A stretch of DNA of 14,706 bases from the NCBI GenBank assembly GCA_016840425.1, contig JAEOSI010000032.1, positions 1-14,706 of the forward strand, read 5' to 3'. Within the stretch, counting starts at the first letter, position 1. Each line of letters opens with the position of its first letter. The notes under the pieces are model-generated. The model was not told the origin of the DNA and did no database searches. It was given only the letters and a program-made list of their open reading frames with translations. Of this stretch, positions 1 through 14,706 are shown piece by piece. Origin of the DNA: Candidatus Wukongarchaeum yapensis (GTDB lineage Archaea; Asgardarchaeota; Wukongarchaeia; Wukongarchaeales; Wukongarchaeaceae). The translations under genes and the position numbers were made by a program.

Positions 1-171
1 ATAGGCTTTCAAACGAATAAAAAAAGAAAAACTAAAAACAACCCGTTTTCCAAGCAGAAAAAAAGAAACAAAGAGATTAAAAAAGAGCAAAAAACGAGAA
101 AAAAATCAAAAAAACAAGAAATAAAAGAAACCCATAATCCACCCGCAAAAAATCATGTAAAACGAAAACAC
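1..171 (+). repeat. Left terminal inverted repeat (A/C-rich, non-coding)
   Basis: Base-by-base comparison: 1-144 is the exact reverse complement of 14563-14706. Identity continues to 171/14536 with mismatches only at 145, 153 and 158. Confidence 0.98.
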
Positions 172-317
172 CCTCCCAAAAACAAAAATAAACGCATTAT
201 AAGAAAGGTATCAAAATCAAAAACCCGTTTTCCACACAGAAAAACGAGAAAAACAAGCGGAAAAAGAAGAAAAACCACAAAAACAAGAACCTTGTTAAAA
301 TTTGTAAGATATTTTTT

Positions 318-908
318 TCACTTCTTTTTTGGGGTTTTTTCTGCCCGTTTTTCTTTATAGCTTCCCCATGCCCCAATTATAAATATTGCTAAAATAAACC
401 CTGCAATGCCGATTATAGCCGCTGTAAGTAAAGGCGTTCCTTTCTTAGGGGGCGTTCTAACAGTTAGAGTGGCATTACCTGATTCTTCAAAATTCGCTGT
501 TCTAAACCCGATAACTACGATGTATGTGCCAGGTTCAAGTTCTATTTCTCCTGTTATCACGTCTGTTTTTGTCATGTTTGGCGGCACCCTTCTAGTAAAC
601 TCATCAAAAGATTTTGTGTCATTCCACGCGGTAACATTGTCCTCAGGGCTTGCATATACATACACAAACATTTCCGAAAGCTGAATAGTAGCGCTTGTGT
701 TCGTATTTTCAATACTTGCCCAAAACTCAACACTATCCCCCGAATCTATCTCATCAGGTATAACCATTAAAGCATAAACCGAGGATCTACTATTATCTGC
801 CTTTAATTTAGGCACGTTATAAGTGCTTAAAAACATTATAACGATAAGAATGAAGACAAATATTTCTACCTTATTTTTTCCACGTTTTTTCTTACGCGTG
901 CCTTTCAA
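318..908 (-). CDS. Secreted, membrane-anchored surface glycoprotein with an Ig-like/CARDB-like ectodomain (hypothetical)
   Basis: 196 aa, TTG start. It has a basic N-terminus plus hydrophobic signal segment (IFVFILIVIMFL), a beta-strand-rich middle with five N-X-S/T sequons (NTS, NVT, NDT, NMT, NAT), a C-terminal TM helix (LLTAAIIGIAGFILAIFIIGAW) and a Lys-rich tail. The fold assignment is inference. Confidence 0.8.
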   Translation of the reverse strand: MKGTRKKKRGKNKVEIFVFILIVIMFLSTYNVPKLKADNSRSSVYALMVIPDEIDSGDSVEFWASIENTNTSATIQLSEMFVYVYASPEDNVTAWNDTKSFDEFTRRVPPNMTKTDVITGEIELEPGTYIVVIGFRTANFEESGNATLTVRTPPKKGTPLLTAAIIGIAGFILAIFIIGAWGSYKEKRAEKTPKKK

Positions 909-991
909 CCCCTTGATAAAAATATCTCGTCTATTAAAGAAAGAAGTGCCGAGGAGAATTATATAAAATATCCCCTCCCTTTTTGAAAAAT

Positions 992-1609
992 TTAAGCTTC
1001 CTCGAAAAGAATTTTAGCGATCTTTACCCTTAGATCCCTGCGATCACGTTCTAACCGTGCTTCAAACGTATTATCTATAACTATGCTCCCATCCTTCAAC
1101 TGAACTATTACACCACCTGCACAGTTAACATTCGCTTCCGAGAGAGAGACCGTTGTTTCATTCCCCGTCTCTTTCGCTATTACCTCGGCAAGCTGTCCTG
1201 CATTAATATCTTTAATATCCTCTTTTCTCGCCATTACTTTAAGCTCTCCTCCTCCCAATCCTATTCCACCCTCCACTATGAAATTCGCTAAAATCTCCTT
1301 ATAGTCAGACGTTCTAGCCAACTCTCTCAAGCTTTCCAAAGTTTCTTCAAAAGCCTTATCTATATGCTCCTCCATAGCCTTTAACTTCCGCATTTTCTCA
1401 GCCAATCTGATCTTTCCAAGAGACCGCCTCTTTTCCGCTTCTAATTCTCTCTCTCCCCGCGCTAAAATCTCTTGAGCCTCCTTTTGCGCTTTCTCCTCAG
1501 CTTTAGATAATATCTCTTCCACCTCAGCCTTAGCCTTTTCAATAAATTCTTCCGCCTCAGCCTTAGCATCGCTTAAAATACCCTCGCGCATTTTTTCTAA
1601 GACATCCAT
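992..1609 (-). CDS. atpE: A/V-type ATP synthase subunit E (peripheral stalk)
   Basis: 205 aa. The N-terminal long helix has 11-residue periodicity (AKAEAEEFIEK/AKAEVEEILSK), and the C-terminal motif GGVIV...IVIDNTFEARLER is typical of V/A-ATPase subunit E. Confidence 0.92.
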   Translation of the reverse strand: MDVLEKMREGILSDAKAEAEEFIEKAKAEVEEILSKAEEKAQKEAQEILARGERELEAEKRRSLGKIRLAEKMRKLKAMEEHIDKAFEETLESLRELARTSDYKEILANFIVEGGIGLGGGELKVMARKEDIKDINAGQLAEVIAKETGNETTVSLSEANVNCAGGVIVQLKDGSIVIDNTFEARLERDRRDLRVKIAKILFEEA

Positions 1610-1872
1610 CGAACTCAGTTTTATTACCCCGCAATATCTTTATTTAATTCACATCTCAATTTCTTTAATCGATTTTTAATAAAAGTTTTTTGCTTAATTT
1701 TTAAGACTTTATCTATTTTTATTTTGATCATTCTGTTTACTATTTAGCCCCTCCCTCAAAAACATAGCTTATTTTAGGGGGCAAAAATCTCCATAAAATA
1801 GACATGGAAATAGTTTAAACCTTAGTTAATTAAAAAACTTGTGTCTTTAAATAATAAAAAAGCAAGAAAATT

Positions 1873-2420
1873 ATGAGGAGAGAGACCTTGTCTAAAAGAA
1901 CGAATTCTAATAAGGAATCTCGCATCCAATCACTAATTAATAAGTTACACTATAATATATGGGTATTTGAGAGAAAGAGGTAGAAGCACTTGATGAACTA
2001 GGCTGGGAACCAAGAAATGACAAATAAAAGGCTCACTACCTAATAGCAAAAAAAGAGCTCATCCAAGACTTAAAATTTGATGCTATTTATGAAGGTGTAT
2101 TATGGGCTCTTTTTGAGATAGAAGAACCAGCAGTAGAACCCCTCATAGAAGCCCTAAAAGATGAAGATTGGAATGTTCGATGGGGAGCGGTTTTTTCTCT
2201 TGGAAAAATGGAGATAACGAAAGCTGTTGATCCACTGATCAAAACTTTAAAAGACGAAAATGAGCATGTTCGAAGTGAATCAATAGAAGCTCTTATTGAG
2301 ATAGGAAAACCAGCAGTAGAATCTTTGATAAAAGCCTTAAAAGACGAAAGCGGCCTTGTTCAAACATTAGCAAAGATAGCTTTAGAGAAGATAAAGATGA
2401 AAAAATTGAATATTAAATGA
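1873..2420 (+). pseudogene. Degraded PBS-lyase-like HEAT-repeat protein (frameshift plus nonsense codon)
   Basis: ATG 1873 frame (MRRETLSKRTNSNKESRIQSLINKLHYNIWVFERKR) stops at TAG 1981. A second frame from about 1971 reads EKEVEALDELGWEPRNDK*KAHYLIAKKE...PAVEPLIEALKDEDWNVRWGAVFSLGKM..., with in-frame TAA at 2025-2027, and continues into the listed ORF 2208-2420. AVEPLIxALKDExxxVR units are HEAT repeats. Confidence 0.85.
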
Positions 2421-2448
2421 ATTTTTCAAAGTTTTTGCTTGATTTCTT

Positions 2449-2490
2449 ATATAAGGTGTGAACCGATTAACTTAAAAACATATAAGGTGT
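2449..2490 (+). promoter_or_regulatory. Direct repeat ATATAAGGTGT x2 upstream of the homocitrate-synthase-like gene
   Basis: Exact 11-mer at 2449-2459 and 2480-2490, a 31-bp period (about 3 helical turns), in the intergenic region. A regulatory role is inferred. Confidence 0.4.
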
Positions 2491-2595
2491 AAGAATTAAA
2501 ATGTAAGGGTTTATTATTACAAAAGTAAAATTTTCATAATTATTATAAAACTAAAAATAGTATAAATGTAAAGGCAATCCGTTAGGTGTTTTCCG

Positions 2596-3783
2596 ATGAT
2601 GTTAAACATTGACCCAAAAATGTGTGACACCACCCTAAGAGACGGCCGCCAAATGCCTCATTGGTATCCTACGGTAGAAGAAAGCGTGGAAATCGCCCAC
2701 ATTCTAGACACAATTAGCGTGGAACAAATAGAAATTTTTTCTCCGCATTACAATCCTAAAGATAAAACCCTAGCCGAAAGACTGTATGATGAAGGCTTAA
2801 TAGACCGTATTATTTTCTGGCACAGAGCTCTAAAAGGAGATCTTGAAAAAACCTTGGACATGATCCCAGAAGTCAAAGCAGTAGCCCTATCAATGCCCAC
2901 CTCCAAAGTACACCTAAAAATCAAAATAAGAAGAACACCAAAAGAAGTCATCGAAACCGTAATCGAAACAATAGACTACGCAAAAGACCACGGTCTTTAC
3001 GTCTCAGTAAACGCAGAGGAAAGTACAGGAACCGAGCTTTACTACCTACTTCAATTCGCCAAAGCCGCAAAAGATCATAAAGCAGACAGAATAAGAATAT
3101 GCGACACACTAGGCCGCCTCACGCCTACACAAACCCACGAAACAATAAAAGTGATAAGAAAAGTAGCTCAAATTCCCATCGAATTTCACGCACATAACGA
3201 TATGGGATTAGCTGTAGCAAACACTCTAGCTGCTTTTGAAGAAGGGGCTGAATGGGCGAGCACTACCATCGCAGGTATAGGAGAAAGAGCAGGAAACGCC
3301 TCTTTAGAACAGCTTTTAATAGCTCTATACAAACAATATGGCATACACAAGTATAAAATCCAGCAATTAAAAAGAGCCTGTGATCTAGTAGTAAAAGCAG
3401 GATATGACATGGCAATAAACCACCCAGTAGTAGGCAGTAACATGTTTAAACACGAATCCGGTATTCACTTTGACGGAATAAGCAAATCGGTTGAGTGTTA
3501 TGAGCTTATAAGACCAGATGAAATAGGCGTTCAAGTTAATGGCATACTTGATAGAGACGTTGTCGGGGAAACAAGCGGTAGGGCCAACATATTGGCCATA
3601 TTAGCCTATTACGATAAACCTGTAGACAAAAACGATTCAATAGTGCAAGAAATGTTATCAGAAGTTCAAAGACATTTCCTTGAAGGAAGGAAAAAAGCGT
3701 TCTCAGCAGAAGAAGTGTTACAACTTTACAACAACTTCATAAAAAAGGAAACAAAGCCCTATGCTAAGAAACTTTCAGTATAA
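2596..3783 (+). CDS. DRE-TIM metallolyase, homocitrate/isopropylmalate/citramalate synthase family (NifV/AksA-like, no regulatory domain)
   Basis: Motifs DTTLRDGxQ, EFHAHNDMGLAVANTLAA, GIGERAGNA and HESGIH. The 395-aa length fits an enzyme without the LeuA regulatory domain. AGGTG RBS at 2584-2588. Substrate cannot be assigned from the sequence. Confidence 0.9.
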   Translation: MMLNIDPKMCDTTLRDGRQMPHWYPTVEESVEIAHILDTISVEQIEIFSPHYNPKDKTLAERLYDEGLIDRIIFWHRALKGDLEKTLDMIPEVKAVALSMPTSKVHLKIKIRRTPKEVIETVIETIDYAKDHGLYVSVNAEESTGTELYYLLQFAKAAKDHKADRIRICDTLGRLTPTQTHETIKVIRKVAQIPIEFHAHNDMGLAVANTLAAFEEGAEWASTTIAGIGERAGNASLEQLLIALYKQYGIHKYKIQQLKRACDLVVKAGYDMAINHPVVGSNMFKHESGIHFDGISKSVECYELIRPDEIGVQVNGILDRDVVGETSGRANILAILAYYDKPVDKNDSIVQEMLSEVQRHFLEGRKKAFSAEEVLQLYNNFIKKETKPYAKKLSV

Positions 3784-3841
3784 TGCCTTATTTTTAATTA
3801 TTTATCTATTCCATCTTTTACTTCTTTTTTTACTGCTTTTT

Positions 3842-5098
3842 TCAGCGGGATTGCATAAACTCTTCCAGTCTGTTGAAGGCTTCTTCAAGGATTTCTATGG
3901 GTGGAAGGAAAACTGTGCGAAAGTGATTTTTGCCGTATTTTTTCCCAAATCCTGAACCGTGCACAAATAATACTTGTTTCTCTTTAAGGATTTTGAGAAC
4001 GAACTCTTTATCGGTTTTAGCACCTTTTAAATCATGTATATGCGGGAAAGCGTAAAAGGCACCTCTAGGCTCGACGCAAGAGATTCCTTCTATTTCGTTT
4101 AAGCGTTTTGTCGTGTAATCTCTTCTTTTTCTTAACTTTGAGACCATTTCTTGAACAAAGTCATGGGGCCCATCACAAGCAGCCACGCAAGCCTTTTGTA
4201 GGGGAGTGCAAGCGCTCAATCTAGCACGGGCAACCTTCAAAATTCCTTCCCAAATTTCTCCCATGAGATCTGGGGGATCGTGTAAATAAATGTAAGCCAT
4301 ACGCCAGCCAGGGGCAAGATAAACCTTACTAAAACCGTTTAAACCTAAAACAGGAACATCCTTTGAAAGACTCGCGGTGCTTGTTCTTTGTTCCTCATAA
4401 ACTATTAAATCGTAGATTTCGTCGCTTAGAACTAGGAGGTTGTATTCTCCTGCGATATCGATCATTTTTTTCATTGTTTTTTTGTCATATAGGGCTCCTG
4501 TAGGGTTGTTAGGGTTGATGATCAAAAGAGCTTTTGTTTTTTCGGTAATTTTTTTCCTTAAATCGTCTATTTCTGGTTGCCATGCGTTTTCTTCATCACA
4601 AGAGTAGGGGATAGGGATCCCGTCCATGTACCTTGTAAAAGCTTCATAAGGGCTGTAAGTGGGTCCCGGAACCAAAATTTCTTCTCCAGGATTTAGTAGG
4701 GCCGAGACCACGAATATTATTCCTTCGCTTACGCCAGAAGTAGCAACTATTTTTTCAGGGTCTATTTCAACGTTATTAACCTTTTTTTCACGGCGGGCTA
4801 CAGCTTCTTTAAACTCGGGTAATCCTTCTGCTGGGGCATAAAAGTTATATCGGCTCTCGACAGCTTCTCGTAAAGCTTTTCTTATGTGTGGCGGTGTGTC
4901 AAAATCAAATTTATTAGGGTCTCCGATATTTAATTTTAAAACTTCTTTTCCCGTTTTTTCTATTTCGCGCGCATGGAGAACAACTTCTCGAAGGGCAACA
5001 ACGCAATTATTTACGCGTTTTGCAGGTTTAAAAATGCGTTTTAGTTCCGTCAATTTTGCAGGTTTTAAAAAGTATTCTAGTTCCGTCAAAAGACCCAC
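3842..5098 (-). CDS. PLP-dependent aminotransferase class I/II (archaeal alanine aminotransferase-like)
   Basis: Motifs LNIGDP, NPNNPTGA, SDEIYD, GFSKVYLAPGWRMAY (PLP lysine), PRGAFY and HGSGFG. The true start may be TTG 5089 because AGGTG (5100-5096) then sits at RBS distance. Confidence 0.93.
   Translation of the reverse strand: MGLLTELEYFLKPAKLTELKRIFKPAKRVNNCVVALREVVLHAREIEKTGKEVLKLNIGDPNKFDFDTPPHIRKALREAVESRYNFYAPAEGLPEFKEAVARREKKVNNVEIDPEKIVATSGVSEGIIFVVSALLNPGEEILVPGPTYSPYEAFTRYMDGIPIPYSCDEENAWQPEIDDLRKKITEKTKALLIINPNNPTGALYDKKTMKKMIDIAGEYNLLVLSDEIYDLIVYEEQRTSTASLSKDVPVLGLNGFSKVYLAPGWRMAYIYLHDPPDLMGEIWEGILKVARARLSACTPLQKACVAACDGPHDFVQEMVSKLRKRRDYTTKRLNEIEGISCVEPRGAFYAFPHIHDLKGAKTDKEFVLKILKEKQVLFVHGSGFGKKYGKNHFRTVFLPPIEILEEAFNRLEEFMQSR
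5018..5089. repeat. 36-bp tandem duplication at the 5' end of the aminotransferase gene
   Basis: 5018-5053 and 5054-5089 match at 31/36 nt and encode LTELKRIFKPAK and LTELEYFLKPAK on the minus strand. Confidence 0.9.
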
Positions 5099-5485
5099 CT
5101 AAGATGTGTGTAGTTTAATAACTTTTAAACAGTTGATTTATTAATCTATCTGTTAAAATGTTTCAGTTTTTATTTTATGTTTTATGGCTGTTAAACAGAA
5201 TTTATAAGATATGTCAGCGGATAAAAATAGGAAATACAAATAAGGATTAGGCCAACAATTTAAGTTTATGTAAATAGTTTAGTTTTCATATATTAATTTG
5301 ATGCTCCATCATTTGGACCAATATTTACGATTTTTAATTTATATGTAGCGATTTAAGCCCTACTAGTATGCTGGGGATTGAATATTTAATCGATCAATTA
5401 GAAACTGTTTCTCCTATGAAAAACCAATAGTTAAGCATACAATGTTGCCGCTTTCATTATGATTAAATTTAGAGGAGGAGTTTCC

Positions 5486-6541
5486 ATGATGCAAAATGGA
5501 ATATGCGGAATTGTCGGATACGGGTCCTATATACCTCGATTCAGGATAAAAATTGAGGAAATTGCTAAAGTCTGGGGAAAAGACGGTTCAAGAATCGCCA
5601 AGGGACTGGGGGTTGTGGAAAAATCAGTTCCCGACATGGATGAAGACACCATAACCATAGCAGTTGAGGCAGCAAAAAACGCTTTAAAGGTTGCTGAAAT
5701 CGATCCTAGTGAAATAAACGCCATTTACACGGGGTCAGAATCACATCCCTACACGGTAAAACCTACCGCATCAACCGTAGCAGAAGCCTTAGGCGCGGTA
5801 CCTTGCGTAACTTGTGCGGACTTAGAATTTGCTTGTAAAGCAGGTACCGCAGGAATCCAGATGTGCATGGGTTTAGTGGCGTCTGATGAAATAAAATATG
5901 GAATGAGCATCGGCGCAGACTGCGCCCAAGGAAAACCAGGAGACGCTTTAGAATACACGGCGAGTGCAGGAGGAGCAGCATATATAATCGGAAAAAACGG
6001 CTGCGTGGCAAAAATTGAAGGCACTTTTTCCTTTACGACCGATACCCCCGACTTTTGGAGACGAGACGGGGCAGAATTTCCATGCCATGCAGCAAGATTT
6101 ACCGGTGAACCAGCATATTTCAAGCACGTAATAGGCGGTGCACAAGGACTGATGGACAAGCTGGGGACAACAATAAACGATTATGACTACTTTGTGTTTC
6201 ATCAACCAAACGCGAAGTTTCCCTTGCGTACAGCAATTTCACTACAAATACCTACTGAAAAACTGAAAGAAGGTTTGGTTGTTCGACATATAGGGAATAG
6301 TTATTCTGGGAGCTCACTTCTTGGATTGGCCCGTATTTTAGATATAGCAAATCCTGGGGAGAGGATACTGGTTACTTCTTACGGTTCAGGTGCGGGAAGC
6401 GATGCTTTCAGTTTAATCACGACGGACTTATTACCAGAGAAGAGGAAAAATGCACCGAATGTTGATGATTATATTCGGTTGAAAGAGTATGTGAGTTATG
6501 CGCTTTACGCTAAGCATAGAAGCAAGATTCGAGGAATATAA
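5486..6541 (+). CDS. mvaS: Hydroxymethylglutaryl-CoA synthase (archaeal type)
   Basis: GSESHPY (catalytic Glu), EFACKAGT (catalytic Cys), FHQPN (His), GNSYSG and SYGSGAGSD. Start moved from 5459 to ATG 5486, which follows GGAGGAG at 5474-5480. Confidence 0.95.
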
Positions 6542-6561
6542 AGAAGGCAAGGGTGTTTTTT

Positions 6562-7722
6562 ATGCGTAATGTAGCGGTGATAGGCGTCGGGATGACGAAA
6601 TTCGGAGAGTTATGGGATTATAGTTTACGGCAAATCTTTACGATGGCTGCAATAGAAGCCCTTGAAGATGCGGGGTGCAGTAATAGGGACATTGAAGCGT
6701 TTTATGTGGGAAACATGAGTGCTGGTCTTTTTATAGGCCAGGAGCATTTGGGTGCTTTATTAGCCGATAATGCGGGTTTAAAGAACATACCTGCAATGCG
6801 AGTTGAAGGCGCTTGTGCAAGCGGCGGCCTTGCCCTTAGAGAAGCATATTTGACCATAAAAGCTGGTGAATATGACTTGGTCATGGTTGGGGGAATAGAG
6901 AAAATGAGCGATTCACCTTGTACTGAAGATGTGACAACCACTTTAGGAGCCGCGGCAGATCAAGAATGGGAAACTTTTGTTGGGTTGACTTTTCCTGGGG
7001 CTTACGCCCTGATAGCAAAGGCTCACATGGAACGGTATGGAACTACTAAGGAACAGCTGGCTATGGTGGCTGTGAAAAACCATAAAAATGGGAAAAATAA
7101 TCCTAAGGCTCAGTTTAGACGGGAAATTACGATAGAGCAAGTGTTGGCTTCTGGAATAGTGGCAGACCCTCTTTCATTGCTTGACTGTTCCCCCATATCT
7201 GATGGAGGTGCGGCGGTGATTCTTGCGAGCGAGGATATGGCGAAAAAGTTCTCAGATACTCCCGTATGGATCTTGGGTTCTGGTCAAGCGTCAGATACTC
7301 TCGCCCTTCATGATCGTGAAGATTTAACTAGCTTAAAAGCTACAAGACTTGCAGCTGAAAAGGCGTATACTGCAGCTAATATGGGGCCAAAAGACGTGAA
7401 TTTTGCAGAAGTTCATGATTGTTTCACTATAGCCGAAATAGTCGCGACTGAGGATTTAGGATTTTTCCACCCAGGTGGGGGAGGAAAAGCTGTAGAGGAA
7501 GGTTTAACAGAGGTCGATGGAAAGATCCCTATAAATCCTTCAGGAGGTCTAAAAGCAAAGGGTCATCCTGTAGGGGCTACAGGTGTGGCGCAAGTTGTAT
7601 CAGTGGTAGAACAGCTTCGAGGAGAGGCTCATAAAAGGCAAGTAAACCGGGCTGAGACCGCGTTAACTCATAATGTAGGTGGAAGTGGCGCTACAGCGGT
7701 AGTTCACATATTTTCAAGATGA
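6562..7722 (+). CDS. Acetyl-CoA acetyltransferase (acetoacetyl-CoA thiolase, archaeal SCP2-like type)
   Basis: EGACASGG (catalytic Cys), EVHDCF, GHPVGATG and HNVGG. It lies directly after HMG-CoA synthase. ATG 6562 follows GGGTG at 6551-6555 (alternative GTG 6553). Confidence 0.95.
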   Translation: MRNVAVIGVGMTKFGELWDYSLRQIFTMAAIEALEDAGCSNRDIEAFYVGNMSAGLFIGQEHLGALLADNAGLKNIPAMRVEGACASGGLALREAYLTIKAGEYDLVMVGGIEKMSDSPCTEDVTTTLGAAADQEWETFVGLTFPGAYALIAKAHMERYGTTKEQLAMVAVKNHKNGKNNPKAQFRREITIEQVLASGIVADPLSLLDCSPISDGGAAVILASEDMAKKFSDTPVWILGSGQASDTLALHDREDLTSLKATRLAAEKAYTAANMGPKDVNFAEVHDCFTIAEIVATEDLGFFHPGGGGKAVEEGLTEVDGKIPINPSGGLKAKGHPVGATGVAQVVSVVEQLRGEAHKRQVNRAETALTHNVGGSGATAVVHIFSR

Positions 7723-7779
7723 GAATTAAAACTAATATTTAATTAACAATTTAAGTTTTTTAAAGGAGGAAACTGTTAA

Positions 7780-8214
7780 ATGGCCCATCTAGAAAGCGTG
7801 CCTATGTTCTGGAGAAGGATGAAATCTTTATACAGTTTGATAGGCGTAGAATGCCTCAATTGTGGTAAAAAATATTTTCCCCCAAGGTTGATATGTCCTG
7901 AATGTGGCGGAAAAGAGATGAAAGACTACAGGTTTAAAGGCACGGGAAAAGTTGTAAGTTATTCCATAATCGATGTACCGCCAAAAGGCTTAAAGTACCA
8001 GACACCTTACGGATTAGCTATTGTGGAACTAGATGAAGGCGTAAGAGTCACCGGTCAGTTAGTCGGTTGTAATCTTGGGGAAATAAAAGCAGGAATGAGA
8101 GTTGAGACAACCTTTAGAAAAATAATTGCAGTAAATAAAAACGGCGTTATACAGTATGGTTATAAATTCAGGCCAGAAGGATATCCAAGAATCAATAATG
8201 GAGAAAAAAAATAG
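7780..8214 (+). CDS. DUF35 Zn-ribbon/OB-fold protein (scaffold of the thiolase/HMGCS complex)
   Basis: CxxC...CxxC (CLNC, CPEC), G-V-SYS, PY.LAIVELDEG.RVTGQL and I.AGMRVE..FRK. It is the third gene of the canonical archaeal HMGCS-thiolase-DUF35 cluster. GGAGGA RBS at 7765-7770. Confidence 0.93.
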   Translation: MAHLESVPMFWRRMKSLYSLIGVECLNCGKKYFPPRLICPECGGKEMKDYRFKGTGKVVSYSIIDVPPKGLKYQTPYGLAIVELDEGVRVTGQLVGCNLGEIKAGMRVETTFRKIIAVNKNGVIQYGYKFRPEGYPRINNGEKK

Positions 8215-8406
8215 AAAAACATTAATACTCTTATTTGTCCCCATTTTTTACCTTTTTCCCATCTTCTTAATGGCTTATTAATAGCTTTGTATAGAATAAA
8301 TTTTAAAAGTGATGGAAATAATTTTAAAATCAAAAAATATCTCAGTTAGGAAATGCTAAAGATTTTATAAAAGTAAGTTAATAATAAGGATTATGGAGGA
8401 GATGAT

Positions 8407-8547
8407 GTGCCATTAACTTGCCCTAAGTGTGGAAGCAAAAACTTAAAGACTGAGACTGACAAGAGTAAACCCCTAACCTATAGTGGACACGTACCAGTAT
8501 TCCATAAGGTATATGTGTGTAAGGATTGTGGAAACAGGTTTGAATAA
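8407..8547 (+). CDS. Small zinc-ribbon protein, 46 aa (not in the supplied ORF track)
   Basis: GTG 8407 follows GGAGGAG (8395-8401). Translation MPLTCPKCGSKNLKTETDKSKPLTYSGHVPVFHKVYVCKDCGNRFE* has CPKC and CKDC pairs, with TAA at 8545-8547. Confidence 0.85.
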   Translation: MPLTCPKCGSKNLKTETDKSKPLTYSGHVPVFHKVYVCKDCGNRFE

Positions 8548-8764
8548 TAAGAACATGGTTGAATGAGAAGAACATATCAGTTTTTTAGTCATTTGTCTTT
8601 TCTTGGTCTATCTTATCTTTTTCAATTCGCTCCCCATTTTTTCGATTTTCTGCTTCTAAAGGTAGTAGGGGTTTAAAACTTTGTTTTCTTAGGCTTTGAA
8701 TTCACAACTCTAAGATTTCTAGATTTGTATTTCAATAATGTTTTTGAATAAACCATAAATCTTT

Positions 8765-9124
8765 TTAAGAGGCATATGTGACTATTTTTTTCTTTTTCTT
8801 CTTTTCTGTCTCCTTTTCTTTTGAATTTTGTAGTTTTTCTTCTATTTTTTCTTTTTCCTCTTCATCTTTTTCTTTCTTTTTTGCTCTTAGTTTCCTTATT
8901 TCTTCCGCTAGCCAGAGTTCTAAGCGCCCCCATTCCGGTGTTCTTCGCAACTCTTCAAGAAAGGCTTTTGCCTCTTTATGGGTCATTTTTTTCTTCTTTA
9001 ATTCTTCGAGTTTTTCCTGAATTTTTCTGTCTACCTCTTCTTTCTCTTTCTCTGTTAATTGGATGAAGTATCGGGTTCGGACTTTCTCTAAAATGGATCT
9101 AAATTGCCGTATTAAACATACCAT
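8765..9124 (-). CDS. Hypothetical highly charged helical/coiled-coil protein
   Basis: 119 aa, very K/E-rich with amphipathic helices. It is divergent from apgM across an AT-rich spacer. No recognisable family. Confidence 0.65.
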   Translation of the reverse strand: MVCLIRQFRSILEKVRTRYFIQLTEKEKEEVDRKIQEKLEELKKKKMTHKEAKAFLEELRRTPEWGRLELWLAEEIRKLRAKKKEKDEEEKEKIEEKLQNSKEKETEKKKKKKIVTYAS

Positions 9125-9304
9125 GATCTTTCCAAACCTAAAAACAATCTGCTTCTAATATTAGGATATATTTATTATATATTTGTATATGTTGTATCTT
9201 TTATAACCATGTTTTTTTATAAAATATTGGGTTTTTTGGAGGGATAAAATATTTTATGTGGGATGTAGTGTTTTTCTAAAATTTGTTTTTTAGGTGATTG
9301 TATC

Positions 9305-10579
9305 GTGTTGAAGCTTCTCTATTTAGTTTTAGATGGTGTGGCGGACAGAATTAATGGGGAAACATCTCTTGAAGTTGCTGAAACTCCTGGTTTAAATGAG
9401 TTGGTTTCGAAGGCTAAGTGTGGTCTTCAGTATTCTATTGGAAAGGGAATTGCTCCTGAAAGTGATGTGGCGGTTATTTCGATATTGGGATATGATCCGC
9501 ATAAATACTATACGGGCCGTGGCCCTTTAGAGGCGTTAGGGGTCAATATTAAGATTAAAGAGGGGATTGAAGTAGCTTTTCGCGCTAACTTTGCTACAGT
9601 CGATGCGGATTCAGAGGATCTTGTGATACTTGACAGAAGGTGTGGTAGAGATCTTTCATCAGAAGAAGCAAAGGAGCTTGCAAAGGCTGTGGATGGTCTT
9701 GAGCTGGGGATAGATAATGGTTATGTGCGGGTTCAATCTACTGTGGGTCATCGGGGAGTAATAGTTCTTGGAAGCAAGCTTGGATTGTCGGATAATGTTG
9801 GTAATACGGACCCTGCATACGCTAAGGTAGGAAAAATATCAACAGCTAAAGAAAGTTATGAGAGTAAAGTTTCTTTATGCGAGTCCCTTGAAGACACTTC
9901 AGAAGCTAAAAGAACGGCAGAACTTGCGAATATTTTCACAAGAAAAGCTTTAGAGATTTTAGATTCTCATCCGGTGAATCAGAAAAGAGAGAGCTTGGAT
10001 AAGCTTAAGGGTAATATTTTGCTTTTGAGGGATGCTGGGGGTTCTTTGCCAAAAGTTAAACCGATAAACGAAGTTTTTCAGGCAAGTTTTGCTGCTGTAA
10101 CGGAGATGCCTGTAGAAAACGGTGTGGCAAAACTCTTAGGTATGGATGCTGGAGAAGTTTCTCCTCCAACCGAAAATAAAAAAGCAGATTTAGAAGAAAG
10201 GCTTGAAAGTACAGAAAAGCTCTTAGAAAAACACAATGTAGTTTATACTCATTTAAAAGGTCCTGATGAGCCTGGTCATGATGGAGATTTCAAGAGAAAA
10301 GTGCAATCGATTGAAGAGATAGATAGGTATTTTGTGAGGGAATTGTTAAAGCATTATGATTTAAGCGAATTAGCAGTGCTTGTGACAGCAGATCACGCAA
10401 CACCGCCAGAACTAAAAGTTCACAGCGACGACCCAATCCCGTTTATGATCGCTTACGAAAAACTGGAACCAGACAACATTAAAAAATTTAGCGAAAGAGA
10501 ATGTATGAAAGGTTCTCTAGGTGTAATAGAGCACGGATGGGAACTACTGCCGATGATAATGAAAATGATCCGATCATAA
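9305..10579 (+). CDS. apgM: 2,3-bisphosphoglycerate-independent phosphoglycerate mutase, archaeal ApgM family
   Basis: LDGVAD, PESDVA (phospho-Ser), YTGRGPLEALG, FRANFAT, HLKGPDEPGHDGD, TADHATP and HSDDP metal ligands of the alkaline-phosphatase superfamily. Confidence 0.92.
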   Translation: MLKLLYLVLDGVADRINGETSLEVAETPGLNELVSKAKCGLQYSIGKGIAPESDVAVISILGYDPHKYYTGRGPLEALGVNIKIKEGIEVAFRANFATVDADSEDLVILDRRCGRDLSSEEAKELAKAVDGLELGIDNGYVRVQSTVGHRGVIVLGSKLGLSDNVGNTDPAYAKVGKISTAKESYESKVSLCESLEDTSEAKRTAELANIFTRKALEILDSHPVNQKRESLDKLKGNILLLRDAGGSLPKVKPINEVFQASFAAVTEMPVENGVAKLLGMDAGEVSPPTENKKADLEERLESTEKLLEKHNVVYTHLKGPDEPGHDGDFKRKVQSIEEIDRYFVRELLKHYDLSELAVLVTADHATPPELKVHSDDPIPFMIAYEKLEPDNIKKFSERECMKGSLGVIEHGWELLPMIMKMIRS

Positions 10580-10693
10580 AAACTAGAAGAATCATTAAAT
10601 AAAGCAAAGAACCGGCTCAGATTTTTCTGATTATCGCCTTTCTCCCCTTTTTTTCTACTTCCTCTTTTTATTCTCTCCAACCATTACCATTTT

Positions 10694-11659
10694 TTATTGA
10701 TCGTATTGTTCTTTTACGCGGGCTTCAACTTGATCTAAAGAACCAAAACCTGAAGCACTCTTCTCTTCTATAAGAAAGCTCGTAGCAGCTGAAGCAAACC
10801 TTGCGGATTGAAGAACATCCTCCGACCAAAGGTGTTTAACGATAAAAGCGGCAAGAAAGGCGTCTCCTGCCCCTGTAGTATCTATGACTTTTTTCGGCTT
10901 GCAAGGAGGGATCTTAAACACTGTTTTTTTTCCTTCTTTGATATCTATAACTATGGATCCTTTTGATCCCCTAGTTATTAAAAAAATGCCTTTCTCCTTT
11001 TTTTTAAAAAAATTGATTAACGCATCTAAGTTGTTTCTTTTTATGTTTGCTATAGCAAAAGCTTCTTCTTCAGAAGGCGAAAGAATGTCCGCATAACACA
11101 TAATCTCGTCAAAATTTGTCCCACATTCTAAATAAACAGTTCCATCAGGTTTGATCATCCGTAAAAAACCCTGGGGATCAACACCTATTAAAGGCCCTTT
11201 ACCCACAGTTTCTCTTAGCCAGCTTATAAAATCAGGGGAAATTTCATGCATAACAGGGGAAATTAAAAAACTTTTAGCTTTAAAATATGTTTCAGGAACA
11301 TTTTTCTTGGTAATCTTGTCTGCCTTTGTTATAAGTTTGGAGAACCTTTCTTCATTCCGTGTACATCTATGAAAAAACCTTGTGCTATATTCTCCACGCC
11401 TATTAGCTCCCCTAATATCGATGTTTTTAGAGTCCAGAAAATGTAAATATTCGTCGGGAAAATCTTTCCCCACCACGCTAACAATGCCCACAGACGCGCC
11501 TAATTTAGCGGCAGTGAATCCCGCATACGCAGGAGGACCCCCTAAAAAAAGTTTTTTTTCCACATTTTTTTCCCTTATTGTTCTTTCTTTGAGTTTATTG
11601 GCGCCTTCATTATGAACAATATCAAGGCATAAGTTGCCCACAATCACGATATCAAACAT
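10694..11659 (-). CDS. PfkB/ribokinase-family carbohydrate kinase
   Basis: N-terminal GGPPAYAG..AAKLG, VDPQGFLR, ITRGSKGS and the C-terminal signature DTTGAGDAF with the catalytic Asp. Confidence 0.92.
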   Translation of the reverse strand: MFDIVIVGNLCLDIVHNEGANKLKERTIREKNVEKKLFLGGPPAYAGFTAAKLGASVGIVSVVGKDFPDEYLHFLDSKNIDIRGANRRGEYSTRFFHRCTRNEERFSKLITKADKITKKNVPETYFKAKSFLISPVMHEISPDFISWLRETVGKGPLIGVDPQGFLRMIKPDGTVYLECGTNFDEIMCYADILSPSEEEAFAIANIKRNNLDALINFFKKKEKGIFLITRGSKGSIVIDIKEGKKTVFKIPPCKPKKVIDTTGAGDAFLAAFIVKHLWSEDVLQSARFASAATSFLIEEKSASGFGSLDQVEARVKEQYDQ

Positions 11660-11710
11660 TAACAGTCCCTTTCCTTTCTTTCAACTCTAAAAGAAAAAAA
11701 ATAATTGAGC

Positions 11711-11778
11711 GAAACGGATGTTAGATAAGCGGATAGATAACATCTTAATACGAAAAAAATTTAACGACTGAAACGGAT
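11711..11778. promoter_or_regulatory. Candidate operator region between divergent pfkB and roadblock genes
   Basis: Inverted repeat GATGTTA (11717-11723) / TAACATC (11738-11744). Direct repeat GAAACGGAT at 11711-11719 and 11770-11778. Confidence 0.35.
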
Positions 11779-11819
11779 TTAACTTAAAGAGTACTTTTCA
11801 ACTTAATATTTTTGTGTAG

Positions 11820-12218
11820 GTGCAACAATTGGGAATGAAAACCGAACTTAGTCCTGAAGTAAAAAAGAAGCTTGTTAAAACGTTGGGCGAAATTTCACGT
11901 TATTGTGATCTTGACGCTTTAGCAGTAGTTACGCGAGAAGGTCGTCGTCTAGCCTTTTTCGCTCAAAAGGGCACAGACCCTGACCTATTATCCGCAGTTT
12001 CTGCGGCAGTCACTTCGACGGGAACTATGGTAACGCAACAGTTAATGCACGGAGATCTTTGGGAAGTGATCGTTAGGGGGGAGACTGGCTATACGATTTT
12101 ATCTAGTGCTGGCGAGTTTGTGTTGATTGGGGCTTCAAGAGAGTTTTTCTCCATGGGATTAGCTGTTAGAGTATTACGGGAATATAGGAAAAAAATAGAG
12201 AAAGTTCTCGCAGGATAG
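11820..12218 (+). CDS. Roadblock/LC7 (MglB-like) domain protein
   Basis: Roadblock pattern: helix, then LDALAVVTREGRRLA, then D.DLLSAVSAAVTSTG....QQL..GDLWEVIVRGETGYTILSSAGEFVLIGAS, then a C-terminal helix. The start could be TTG 11829 or ATG 11835 (AGGTG at 11818-11822). Confidence 0.88.
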   Translation: MQQLGMKTELSPEVKKKLVKTLGEISRYCDLDALAVVTREGRRLAFFAQKGTDPDLLSAVSAAVTSTGTMVTQQLMHGDLWEVIVRGETGYTILSSAGEFVLIGASREFFSMGLAVRVLREYRKKIEKVLAG

Positions 12219-12242
12219 ATGCAAAAATCTTCTTTTAATGTA

Positions 12243-12270
12243 TAAAGATGCGAAATTTCGCATATCTTTA
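12243..12270. promoter_or_regulatory. Perfect 16-bp palindrome ATGCGAAATTTCGCAT within a larger imperfect inverted repeat
   Basis: 12248-12263 is self-complementary. TAAAGAT (12243-12249) also pairs with ATCTTTA (12264-12270). It lies upstream of a TTTAAA TATA-like box and rps26e. It could be an operator or a terminator hairpin. Confidence 0.6.
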
Positions 12271-12357
12271 AAGTTAATCTTTATTTCTCTTTTTGTTTTG
12301 CTTAACATATTTAAATGATGAGACGAGATCAGATTAATGTATAGGTTGTGATTAGTA

Positions 12358-12648
12358 TTGCCTAAAAAGAGAAAATCAGGTGGAAGATCTAAAGGGAAAA
12401 AAGGGCGCGGTTATACTGTTCAATGTTCCCAGTGTGGTAGGATGGTTCCTCGAGATAAAGCGAAGAAACGGACGCAGGTTAAAGGCATGATATCGGATCC
12501 TGTTTTTGCAAAAGAGTTGAGGAAAAGTGGGACTTACATACCCCGCAATGTTACAGTTAAATGGTATTGTATTTCATGCGCTGTTCATAGAGGAGTAGTG
12601 AAAGTTAGAAGCGAAAGTGAAAGGAAAAATGACCGCTCTACAAGATAA
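12358..12648 (+). CDS. rps26e: 30S ribosomal protein S26e (eS26)
   Basis: MPKKRKSGGRSKG, VQCSQCGRMVPRDKAKK and WYCISCAVHRGVVKVRS match eS26 with its four Zn-binding cysteines. TTG start. Confidence 0.96.
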   Translation: MPKKRKSGGRSKGKKGRGYTVQCSQCGRMVPRDKAKKRTQVKGMISDPVFAKELRKSGTYIPRNVTVKWYCISCAVHRGVVKVRSESERKNDRSTR

Positions 12649-12719
12649 AAATATTTAAAAAAACCAAGTAAAAGATCGTAAAAGAAAATATTAAATCCTA
12701 AGTTATTTTTACGGAGACC

Positions 12720-13082
12720 GTGGATTTTTTGAATGAGGAAACAAAAACGGGTAAGGCTTTAAAACGTCTTCATAAAAAGACAACGAAAGAAGTCCTTTGG
12801 CTCTATATTTTAAGATTGCTCCAAGAGGGCCCAAGATATGGATACGAACTCGCCAGAGAAATAAAGGAAAGGTTTAATTTTTCGCCTGCCAGGGTGTCAA
12901 GCTATGTTATTCTTTATAAATTAGAACGTGATGGTCTTGTTTTATCGAAAGTTAAAGGTTCGTTCACAGGTCGTCCTGATAGAAAATATTATGAGATTAC
13001 AGAGAAAGGGGAGGAACAGATGAAGTTGGCTAAAGATTATTTAAAAGGGCTTATGCAAAAAGTTTTTGACAAAACAGAATAG
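12720..13082 (+). CDS. PadR-family winged-helix transcriptional regulator
   Basis: LWLYILRLLQEGPRYGYELAREIKE, SYVILYKLERDGLV and RPDRKYYEITEKG are the PadR signature. GTG start after GGAG (12713-12716). Confidence 0.93.
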   Translation: MDFLNEETKTGKALKRLHKKTTKEVLWLYILRLLQEGPRYGYELAREIKERFNFSPARVSSYVILYKLERDGLVLSKVKGSFTGRPDRKYYEITEKGEEQMKLAKDYLKGLMQKVFDKTE

Positions 13083-14469
13083 TATAAAATTTAAGGACTG
13101 TTTTGTTGTGGGAACACACTTGGGAAAATTAGACACTAATGAAGAGCAAATGATGGAGGAACTAGAAGGTCTCTTAAAGCAAAAATCTTTTACAAGAGCT
13201 GCAGAAAAAGCCCTCCATCTTGGAGATAAGTTCGAAAAAAGGGGAGAGAAAGAAAAAGCGTTAAAGCTTAAAAAGCAAGCAGTAGATTTCTTACTAAAAG
13301 CCAAAGATCAGCACATCAAAAGAAAGTCTTGGAAACTTGTTGCAAACACTTTGTTCCATGCTGCTAAACTTTTAAGAAATCTTGACCGTTCTGGTGAAGC
13401 TTTACCACTAATCAAGTCTGGGACTGAATATCTTAGTAAAGCTGCTGAAGAATATCTCGTATGGCAAGATCTAGAAAAGGCTACTATGTGTTTTGTCACT
13501 TTTATCTTGCTAAAAATGGCTTCGAAAGACTTTGAAGTGAAAGAAGAAGTGGAAAACTTCCGGTCAAAAATCGGGATTTCAGAGCTTTCTCACCCGAAAG
13601 AAAATTCGATGCTTGAAATACCAATAATTTTAACAGAAAGCGTTGAAAAAACCGACCTCGCCCTCTTAGAAAAAGCTAAAGAATTAACCTATTCCCTTAT
13701 TAAAGATCTATGTATAAGTGAAGTCGGTGTGTGGGTTTTTGAAAAGACAGAAGACACGTTTATCGTGGCTGAAAAACGGTTAAGGGATAAGATAAAATTC
13801 CCCAAAGTAAAGTTACAGGTAGAGTTTCCAAACGAAATCATTCACGCAGAAGAATTTGATGTCACAATAAAAATCCTCAACGAGGGAGAAGGAAACGCTC
13901 AAAACATGCAGCTAGAACTTAATACAAAAGAACCTTTAACAGTCATAGAAACAAATAAAGCCACAATAGATGCTTTTAACGCGGAAGAAACAATTTCAAA
14001 ATCTTTCAAATTAACTACCACAGGTCCGCCTCCATCACCAAGCGGTGAAGGAGATACCGGAACAGAAATACCGATAACAGTAACGGTTACTTGGGAAGAC
14101 ATTTTGGATACCAAACATAGGATAGAATCAAGTCCCTCGTTTATAACTCTTAACACTCTGAGTGAAACAAAAAGGCTTGAAAACATATTAGAGAAAATGA
14201 AAGATAAAATAACAGAAATAACAGCAATTATTGAAGAAAAAACGCTAAAAGAACTAAACTCCCTGCTCAAAAACATAATAAAGATCCCTGGATCATTAGT
14301 TGAAGAGGCTTATAAATCATTAGAAAAAGGAGAACAAAAATACGCAAACTACAAAATAAACCTAATTACAAAACTTCTAAACGAAATTGAAAACTTTCTA
14401 GAAAACCTTCCAACCCCAGCCCCAGAAAACGTAGAAAACCTCCCAGCCCAAAGCCCAAACGACGACTAA
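13066..14469 (+). CDS. Hypothetical protein: N-terminal alpha-solenoid (TPR/SNAP-like), Ig-like (CARDB-like) beta domain, C-terminal helical region
   Basis: Long uninterrupted ORF. Residues ~30-150 are Ala/Leu/Lys helical pairs. Residues ~245-360 show a beta-sandwich pattern (VKLQVEFP...EEFDVTIKILNEGEGNAQNMQLEL...IPITVTVTWED). The start is uncertain: TTG 13066 overlaps padR, and GTG 13108, TTG 13120 or ATG 13150 are alternatives. Confidence 0.8.
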   Translation: MTKQNSIKFKDCFVVGTHLGKLDTNEEQMMEELEGLLKQKSFTRAAEKALHLGDKFEKRGEKEKALKLKKQAVDFLLKAKDQHIKRKSWKLVANTLFHAAKLLRNLDRSGEALPLIKSGTEYLSKAAEEYLVWQDLEKATMCFVTFILLKMASKDFEVKEEVENFRSKIGISELSHPKENSMLEIPIILTESVEKTDLALLEKAKELTYSLIKDLCISEVGVWVFEKTEDTFIVAEKRLRDKIKFPKVKLQVEFPNEIIHAEEFDVTIKILNEGEGNAQNMQLELNTKEPLTVIETNKATIDAFNAEETISKSFKLTTTGPPPSPSGEGDTGTEIPITVTVTWEDILDTKHRIESSPSFITLNTLSETKRLENILEKMKDKITEITAIIEEKTLKELNSLLKNIIKIPGSLVEEAYKSLEKGEQKYANYKINLITKLLNEIENFLENLPTPAPENVENLPAQSPNDD

Positions 14470-14535
14470 AAAACCTAAAAAATAACCAATTCTCCCCCCT
14501 ATTTTTTACATTACGACAATAAAAGTATTTTGGGT

Positions 14536-14706
14536 GTGTTTTCGTTTTTCATGGTTTTTTGTGGGTGGATTATGGGTTTCTTTTATTTCTTGTTTTTTTG
14601 ATTTTTTTCTCGTTTTTTGCTCTTTTTTAATCTCTTTGTTTCTTTTTTTCTGCTTGGAAAACGGGTTGTTTTTAGTTTTTCTTTTTTTATTCGTTTGAAA
14701 GCCTAT
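14536..14706 (-). repeat. Right terminal inverted repeat (G/T-rich on + strand)
   Basis: Reverse complement of 1-171 at 168/171 identity, ending exactly at the last base of the window. Confidence 0.98.

Follow-up and report, generated by a model that had tools for sequence, protein, structure and literature searches.

Matching inverted ends of an Asgard archaeal contig are assembler break points within copies of a TnpB-only insertion sequence

Introduction

Why should a contig filled with housekeeping genes begin and end with the same sequence in inverted orientation? The window analysed here (14,706 nt) is the complete contig C208 of an Asgard metagenome-assembled genome (MAG) of 277 contigs. 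A first-pass annotation had described its ends as terminal inverted repeats and offered three readings: a break between inverted copies of a multicopy repeat, an invertible block, or a linear element. We find that the repeat is real DNA and that the apparent termini are break points left by the assembler. The window is almost certainly ordinary Asgard chromosome, flanked on either side by an IS200/IS605-type, TnpB-only element; the two copies are inverted relative to each other, and the assembler stopped inside them.

Results

The window ends share a tract longer than the assembler could traverse

We realigned the two arms (window 1–171 against 14536–14706) and found them to be inverted and 98% complementary, confirming the repeat as first reported (144 bp perfect, 168/171 overall). 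End-to-end identity is perfect for the first 144 nt and is lost from position 145; similarity reaches ~181 nt with one gap, far above chance level. The end of contig C180 and the start of contig C109 are both identical to window 1–122, and each overlaps either window end by these 122 nt. Identity between C180 and C109 persists for 22 nt beyond the window end, and their outward sequences remain ~92% identical to each other past the shared tract. The longest identical run between the two insertion sequence (IS) copies to which these arms belong is 166 nt, the next longest being 36, 30 and 29 nt, and outside this tract the copies are ~10% diverged. A perfect tract of this length in such a background suggests recent sequence exchange between the two copies, and gene conversion is its likely origin.

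The length of the terminal match is a property of the assembly. In this MAG, 92 pairs of contig ends overlap by exactly 144 nt, that is, K−1, and the shortest contig is 2,009 nt. A de Bruijn assembler working at K = 145 was unable to pass through the 166-nt identical tract. All four contig ends entering the tract halt after exactly 144 nt, and the node for the 166-nt repeat was lost because it fell below the 2-kb contig cut-off. The arithmetic of the overlaps fits this scheme (122 = 144 + 144 − 166). Because the assembler stops 144 nt into the tract from each side, the same 144 nt appear, inverted, at the start and the end of the contig. Indeed, where this locus was assembled at k141, the resulting 14,700-nt contig ends at window position 4, 141 nt into the tract. 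The early hint that 144 bp approximates a k-mer size was therefore correct, 144 nt being the universal contig overlap of the MAG.

We also considered whether the repeat might be coding, since window 1–360 holds an open, K/R-rich frame on its A-rich strand. This frame has no start codon and arises where T makes up just 10% of the sequence. The other five copies do not retain it: their longest open runs span 39–77 codons in varying frames. It was rejected.

The repeat belongs to a TnpB-only insertion sequence as its left end

Beyond the window, a tnpB gene starts ~86 nt outward on both C180 and C109, followed by alaS on C180 and ArgRS on C109. The two TnpB proteins carry HTH_OrfB_IS605, OrfB_IS605 and Cas12f1-like TNB domains (Pfam). 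TnpB Pfam domains are likewise found in an intact paralogue on C59, which scores 288 bits against NF040570 guided_TnpB (cut-off 100) and matches ISDra2 TnpB (8h1j) with E 9e-44 over residues 7–370; its GIDVG, AVEKLN and ERDYN motifs align with the catalytic RuvC D-E-D positions of a solved TnpB-type nuclease. From domain content and the alignment of copies, the repeat is identified as the left end of an insertion sequence of the IS200/IS605 type (IS1341-type), ~1.6 kb long and TnpB-only. The first-pass annotation had called it an undescribed dispersed intergenic element; dispersed it is, but it belongs to an insertion sequence whose tnpB lies just outside the window.

A full-length copy spans 1,592 nt: the left end is T-rich and ~375 nt long, tnpB has ~400 codons, and the right end extends only 15–18 nt past the tnpB stop codon. 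Aligned copies all end in ...GTTCAC, with divergence immediately beyond. The left end consists of two modules (Table 1). The remainder of module B of the left copy, with a TATA-like box and the ATG, lies ~86 nt outside the window on C180. In the copy alignment this module also precedes tnpB in C19 and C34, and another gene in C110 and C189. One 615-aa gene with the same upstream modules has no BLASTP similarity to TnpB and no Pfam or PDB match, its sole match being sub-threshold (TIGR01765).

The right-end consensus folds into conserved stems with six pairs showing compensatory changes, and is predicted to be a guide-RNA scaffold. Folding of the left end as single-stranded DNA is weak: a single imperfect hairpin of 10 bp (z −2.0) forms ~50 nt in from the tip, and the truncated right copy has none. 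Across the MAG we counted 27 right ends, and tnpB occurs at no fewer than 10 loci, several of them at contig ends. The element has no tnpA; the MAG, which is 92% complete, has one full Y1_Tnp gene (C70:7637–7990) and one fragment. Reduced derivatives are also present: a miniature (C109:11414–11752) in which module A runs straight into the final ~50 nt of the right end, a C54 copy made up of the left end and the 3′ part of tnpB, and many solo right-end fragments. In C59 the tnpB and right end are homologous to the family and the left end is unrelated.

Empty sites mark two copies that probably inserted separately

The two flanking copies are oriented with both left ends inward and both tnpB genes reading outward. 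Empty sites for each of them were found in a congener, G001. The site of the left copy is also empty in two populations of 99.5% identity, represented by the conspecific contigs L119 and L121, and together with G001 these set the boundary of module A at 287/288. The word duplicated at the left site occurs twice in the filled allele and once in the empty alleles (TAAGGTT in G001; CAAGATT in L119 and L121). The left tnpB on C180 has a 1-nt insertion, and is intact (400 aa) in another sample (contig L120). At the empty site for the right copy, G001 joins the equivalent of window 14526 to that of C109 ~1119, with ~35 nt found only in G001. In the right copy, ~108 nt are missing from the outer part of module A, and its tnpB (C109:208–1105) has a ~300-nt internal deletion and a frameshift, the right end lying at C109:1123. 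We infer that the two copies stem from separate insertions, the left of which continues to be polymorphic within the species.

Insertion occurs after TTTAA, with a duplication of 5–8 nt (once 11 nt) between the motif and the left end. TTT(T)A[ACT] precedes the duplicated word in at least seven copies (window-left, C54, C109-internal, C59, C125, C232 and G001:C17), and its position at the left end is confirmed by four empty sites. In the four empty/filled comparisons a 5–7-nt word is found once in the empty site and twice around the element, and further copies carry duplicated words of 7, 8, 8 and 11 nt. A decoy control for motif and duplication gave 5/27 observed against 0.38 expected.

The segment between the copies is chromosomal

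Pfam matches identify the window interior as an ordinary chromosomal segment (Table 1), and its gene block occupies one conserved context in G001 and other assemblies. Domain searches inside the window found no transposase, integrase, polymerase or other replication or mobility gene. The original description of housekeeping cargo devoid of mobility genes therefore stands within the window, but the repeat runs outward into tnpB on C180 and C109: the absence holds only because the contig ends ~86 nt short of that gene.

Other public contigs give the chromosomal order. L120 spans the left junction seamlessly, as does L123 the right junction. A 43-kb JGI contig (Ga0310070_1002206) contains C180, the window in plus orientation and C109 in that order with 0 mismatches, and has gaps of 25 and 28 nt exactly where the identical tract is exited; its joins were probably made by paired-end resolution of the repeat and are not perfect sequence. 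All three bridging contigs are collinear, with the alaS side joined to window left and the ArgRS side to window right. The same gene arrangement is found in G001, which lacks both IS copies.

Table 1. Features of the window (coordinates in nt; strand relative to the window).
Feature	Position	Strand	Remarks
Module B of left copy, inner part	1–41	−	Promoter-like region directly upstream of tnpB (tnpB sense = window minus)
Share of identical tract	1–144		Window part of the 166-nt tract common to both IS copies
Module A, left end of left copy	42–287	−	T-rich in tnpB sense; sharp outer boundary shared in six genomic contexts
Target duplication CAAGGTT (tnpB sense), 7 nt	288–294	−	Second copy after right end, C180:3583–3577
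TTTTAA (tnpB sense)	295–300	−	TAM-like conserved motif adjoining left end
Ordinary chromosomal segment	301–14526		Pfam matches; same context in G001 and other assemblies
V-ATPase E	992–1609	−	
HEAT-repeat ORFs	~1770–2420		Within chromosomal segment
HMGL-like	2596–3783		
Aminotransferase	3842–5098	−	
HMG-CoA synthase/thiolase/DUF35 trio	5459–8214		
apgM	9305–10579		
PfkB	10694–11659	−	
Roadblock	11820–12218		
S26e	12358–12648		
PadR	12720–13082		
Conserved 467-aa ORF	13066–14469		
Right IS copy, truncated left end	14527–14706	+	tnpB sense = window plus

Discussion

The overlaps, the K−1 signature and the bridging contigs all bear out the simplest of the original readings, a break between inverted copies of a multicopy repeat. 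The window does not differ from other de Bruijn repeat breaks, which are marked by K−1 overlaps (compare the plastid IR/SSC): a unique segment lies between inverted repeats longer than K−1, both contig ends carry the same K−1 nt of repeat, and orientation is unresolved in the graph. Such a break is the direct cause of the matching window ends.

Inverted copies of an IS could also recombine and flip the 14.3-kb segment between them, in which case both orientations would coexist and so stop the assembler. The geometry permits this: the copies are inverted, the 166-nt perfect tract within ~10%-diverged sequence speaks for recent exchange, and the MAG assembly is blind to orientation, as each end of the window overlaps C180 and C109 alike. 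However, every contig that bridges a junction shows one collinear order, and the IS-free G001 has the identical arrangement. Moreover, a 166-nt repeat exceeds K−1 and halts a de Bruijn assembler with or without flipping. Look-ups of the locus, of alaS and of the ORF beside the right IS copy found no contig with the opposite pairing. The invertible block thus finds no support in the contigs, and we regard it as improbable. A linear mini-chromosome, or an element with terminal inverted repeats that is replicated or mobilized in trans, has in its favour only the look of identical inverted contig ends. The length of these ends follows the assembler k (144 against 141), and G001 has the segment embedded in its chromosome. 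Both within this MAG and in four further assemblies, contig sequence continues through both window tips into tnpB and then alaS or ArgRS, which excludes physical DNA ends there; with the congener's synteny, this refutes the linear element, to which we attach practically no probability.

The presence of the IS on both sides of the segment raises a further explanation, namely that the two copies mobilize the 14-kb housekeeping block as a composite transposon. Tn5/IS50 and Tn10/IS10 likewise bracket genes with two inverted copies of one IS. Those IS, however, have inverted ends and a DDE transposase, and their outer ends can cooperate, whereas the ends of the Asgard element are asymmetric. The strand-specific IS200/IS605 mechanism needs a left-end/right-end pair on one strand (PMC7290912), and with both left ends inward no such pair surrounds the segment. 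Both copies are also defective, the right one having lost ~300 nt of tnpB together with its left-end tip and the left one carrying a 1-nt insertion in tnpB, and the cargo is in its ancestral place, G001 carrying the same genes at the same chromosomal position with no IS. A composite transposon is therefore very improbable, and we retain the assembly break within two separately inserted IS copies.

As a family, the element resembles ISDra2 and IS1341-type elements (8h1j; PMC8612924) in its TnpB, with HTH, RuvC (D-E-D) and zinc ribbon, and in ends that are not inverted. It also shares with them a sharp right end over the 3′ end of tnpB with a conserved, partly covarying stem-loop, insertion beside a fixed short motif, here TTTAA, and, with IS1341-type elements, the absence of tnpA from the element, one Y1 TnpA being encoded elsewhere in this genome. 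It differs in its left end, which is long, T-rich, weakly hairpin-forming and variable in tip length, and which in C59 is unrelated despite homologous tnpB and right end. The miniatures that retain only terminal parts (C109:11414–11752 and C54) and the solo right ends have counterparts in Haloquadratum walsbyi, namely its PATEs and its core-deleted IS605-type remnants (PMC3119063), from which they differ in their Asgard host, their end sequences and their target duplications.

These duplications set the element apart from the textbook family. Texts on IS200/IS605 state that no target site duplication is made, whereas the Asgard element makes short ones, and the literature searched yielded no account of a TnpB-only IS200/IS605 element that duplicates its target. 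Conceivably, though we consider it rather unlikely, the family is moved by something other than canonical TnpA peel-and-paste; the TTTAA target, the variable duplications and the T-rich, poorly structured and variable left end are the features that point this way. If due to non-canonical insertion, the duplications would be relevant to the question of how TnpB-only elements, which lack a transposase of their own, are mobilized.

Two cautions follow for the reading of contigs. Identical inverted contig ends of length K−1 are the mark of a break at a repeat, not of a replicon, and a mobility gene may sit just beyond a contig end. For the organism, the locus points to an Asgard chromosome that harbours a young, still polymorphic family of TnpB-only insertion sequences, two copies of which bracket housekeeping genes and appear to have exchanged sequence.

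Inverted repeats at the window ends extend into tnpB genes

The window is one complete contig (C208) of a metagenome-assembled genome (MAG) that comprises 277 contigs and 2.16 Mb. Its arms (1–171 and 14536–14706) are 98% complementary in inverted orientation, with identity over the first 144 nt and similarity reaching ~181 nt with one gap. The interior encodes V-ATPase subunit E, an HMGL-like enzyme, an aminotransferase, an HMG-CoA synthase/thiolase/DUF35 trio, apgM, a PfkB kinase, a Roadblock/LC7 protein, ribosomal protein S26e and PadR, and domain searches of it found no transposase, integrase or polymerase gene. The first-pass annotation thus described correctly the identical inverted ends around housekeeping cargo with no mobility gene inside the window.

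Three smaller features lie within the interior. A pair of tandem 36-nt direct repeats (5018–5089), 86% alike, lies at the 5′ end of the aminotransferase gene or upstream of it, in the divergent stretch opposite the HMG-CoA synthase operon, and may be operator-like. A 33-nt tandem repeat (14399–14464) falls in the Pro/Gln-rich C-terminal part of a 467-aa ORF, and a T-rich low-complexity stretch (8765–9124) holds a 119-aa ORF with no family match.

Window 1–122 is the terminus of C180 and, reverse complemented, the start of C109, both contigs of the same MAG. Outward of window base 1 these contigs are identical for 22 nt and then ~92% identical over >1 kb. On each, a gene starts ~86 nt beyond the window and reads away from it. 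In the C180 gene, HTH_OrfB_IS605 and OrfB_IS605 domains precede a frameshift caused by one extra T, and a Cas12f1-like TNB zinc ribbon comes after it; the C109 tnpB is frameshifted and has lost ~300 nt internally. An intact 397-aa paralogue on C59 scores 288 bits against NCBIfam guided_TnpB, matches ISDra2 TnpB (8h1j; E 9e-44) and retains the RuvC motifs. Past tnpB, C180 continues into alaS, and C109 into an ORF, ArgRS and thioredoxin. The extra T may be a genuine variant or an error in the consensus; in another sample the left-site tnpB is intact at 400 aa (L120:5234-6436 versus G000:C180:3602-4802).

Anatomy of the insertion sequence

The right end of the insertion sequence (IS), ...GTTCAC, is common to all copies, 15–18 nt past the tnpB stop, and flanks differ immediately after it; the MAG contains 27 such ends. 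When aligned copies are folded, the final ~120 nt give conserved stems in which some of the changes are compensatory, as would be expected of an omega-RNA scaffold. Upstream of tnpB are two modules, B and A. The outer boundary of module A is identical in six unrelated contexts, and module A is joined straight to the terminal ~50 nt of the right end at C109:11414-11752 and to the 3′ part of tnpB on C54. Hence, module A is the left end of the IS. The left copy is 1,592 nt long; in the right copy, module A is missing its outermost ~108 nt. An open frame on the A-rich strand was rejected as a gene, having no start codon and no conservation, and is a product of base composition.

Features of the insertion sequence and its target duplications
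Feature	Location	Remark
Module B, upstream of tnpB	window 1-41 + ~86 nt outside	TATA-like box
Module A, upstream of tnpB	window 42-287	T-rich in tnpB sense
Duplication and motif, left copy	window 288-300; C180:3577-3583	
Duplication, other copies	C54:~11410-12051; C109:11408-11758; C59:~5842-7228; C125; C232; G001:C17	

Solo right-end (guide-RNA scaffold) fragments of ~117 nt occur on C147, C160, C168, C175, C177, C201, C253, C268, C45, C5 and C77. All begin at one and the same element position, and on C175 and C268 the sequence upstream of them is shared as well; this suggests a gene-less miniature element family. The modules preceding tnpB also precede a gene of 607–615 aa (loci L019 and L010), at G000:C189:11269-13116 behind A and B and at G000:C110:11712-13535 behind B only. 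It has no Pfam or PDB match and no BLASTP similarity to TnpB, its sole match being a sub-threshold one to TIGR01765 (TnpB-associated N-terminal domain). This gene could represent a second type of cargo on the same left end.

Target duplication and empty sites

This TnpB-only IS inserts after TTT(T)A[ACT]. Textbook IS200/IS605 elements do not duplicate their target (PMC7290912), whereas the target is duplicated here, which is atypical for that family. In four comparisons of empty and filled sites, the empty site has a single copy of the 5–7 nt after the motif, and the filled site has one copy on either side of the IS. Four additional copies have duplicated words of 7, 8, 8 and 11 nt, and a control with decoys gave 0.38 expected words against 5 observed. 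The direct duplication is 5–8 nt, once 11, and varies by copy, as does the length of the left-end tip; the left end folds into hairpins only weakly. The left end of the C59 copy is unrelated to module A, yet its insertion signature is the same.

In the one congener compared (G001, Candidatus Hodarchaeota archaeon DZ1B.339) neither site holds an IS: window 288 is contiguous with C180:3582 on the alaS flank, and window 14526 with C109:~1119. The left site is also empty in L119 and L121, contigs from populations ~99.5% identical to the window. Hence, both copies inserted in this lineage, and the left copy is still polymorphic within the species. Elsewhere, synteny with the congener breaks at window 1701–3274 (HEAT-repeat ORFs; 93/183-nt repeat units at 2106–2364), where G001:C43 positions 1–1650 have no window counterpart and G001:C13 begins within the HMGL-like gene; either a rearrangement or a break in the G001 assembly could be the cause.

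The window ends where the assembler stopped

Apart from one identical tract of 166 nt, which begins 22 nt beyond the window edge and reaches window position 144, the two IS copies are ~10% divergent throughout; outside this tract the longest identical runs measure 36, 30 and 29 nt. An overlap of exactly 144 nt recurs in 92 contig-end pairs of the MAG, giving an assembler K-1 of 144. Four contig ends enter the tract and each penetrates exactly 144 nt, which explains both the 122-nt overlaps (144 + 144 - 166) and the '144 bp perfect' ends. A repeat node of 166 nt falls well short of the MAG's minimum contig of 2,009 nt. Moreover, an independent k141 assembly of the locus yielded a 14,700-nt contig terminating at window position 4, 141 nt into the tract; the length of the 'TIR' therefore follows assembler k.

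Contigs from other assemblies bridge both junctions. A 43-kb JGI contig (L117/L122, Ga0310070_1002206) runs from C180 (100%) through the window in plus orientation to C109 (0 mismatches for each of the latter two). Where it leaves the identical tract, at window 127–151 and C109:124–151, it has gaps of 25 and 28 nt; these leave exactly 127 bases common to both IS copies and look like a repeat-resolution artefact at K = 127, and we treat this contig with some care. Two further contigs are gapless: L120 passes from the left window end through tnpB to alaS, and L123, from an NCBI MAG, from C109 into the right window end. The proposal of a linear replicon is refuted, as sequence runs past both window ends. 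The 166-nt tract shows that the two IS copies have exchanged sequence, and recombination between inverted copies could on rare occasions flip the intervening segment; all bridging contigs lack the crossed pairing of window ends, which searches of public assemblies for the locus and its flanks found in no contig, leaving an invertible block unsupported. Mobilization of the segment by its flanking copies as a composite transposon fails on three counts: their left ends both point into the segment, each of the copies is defective, and the cargo occupies its ancestral position. The K-1 signature, the k141 break and the bridging contigs instead bear out the further proposal that the assembler broke the sequence at inverted copies of a multicopy repeat, with the contig lying between them. 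The inverted ends of the window are what assembly at insertion sequences ordinarily produces, and the IS itself is an addition to a known kind of element, possibly an unusual variant.
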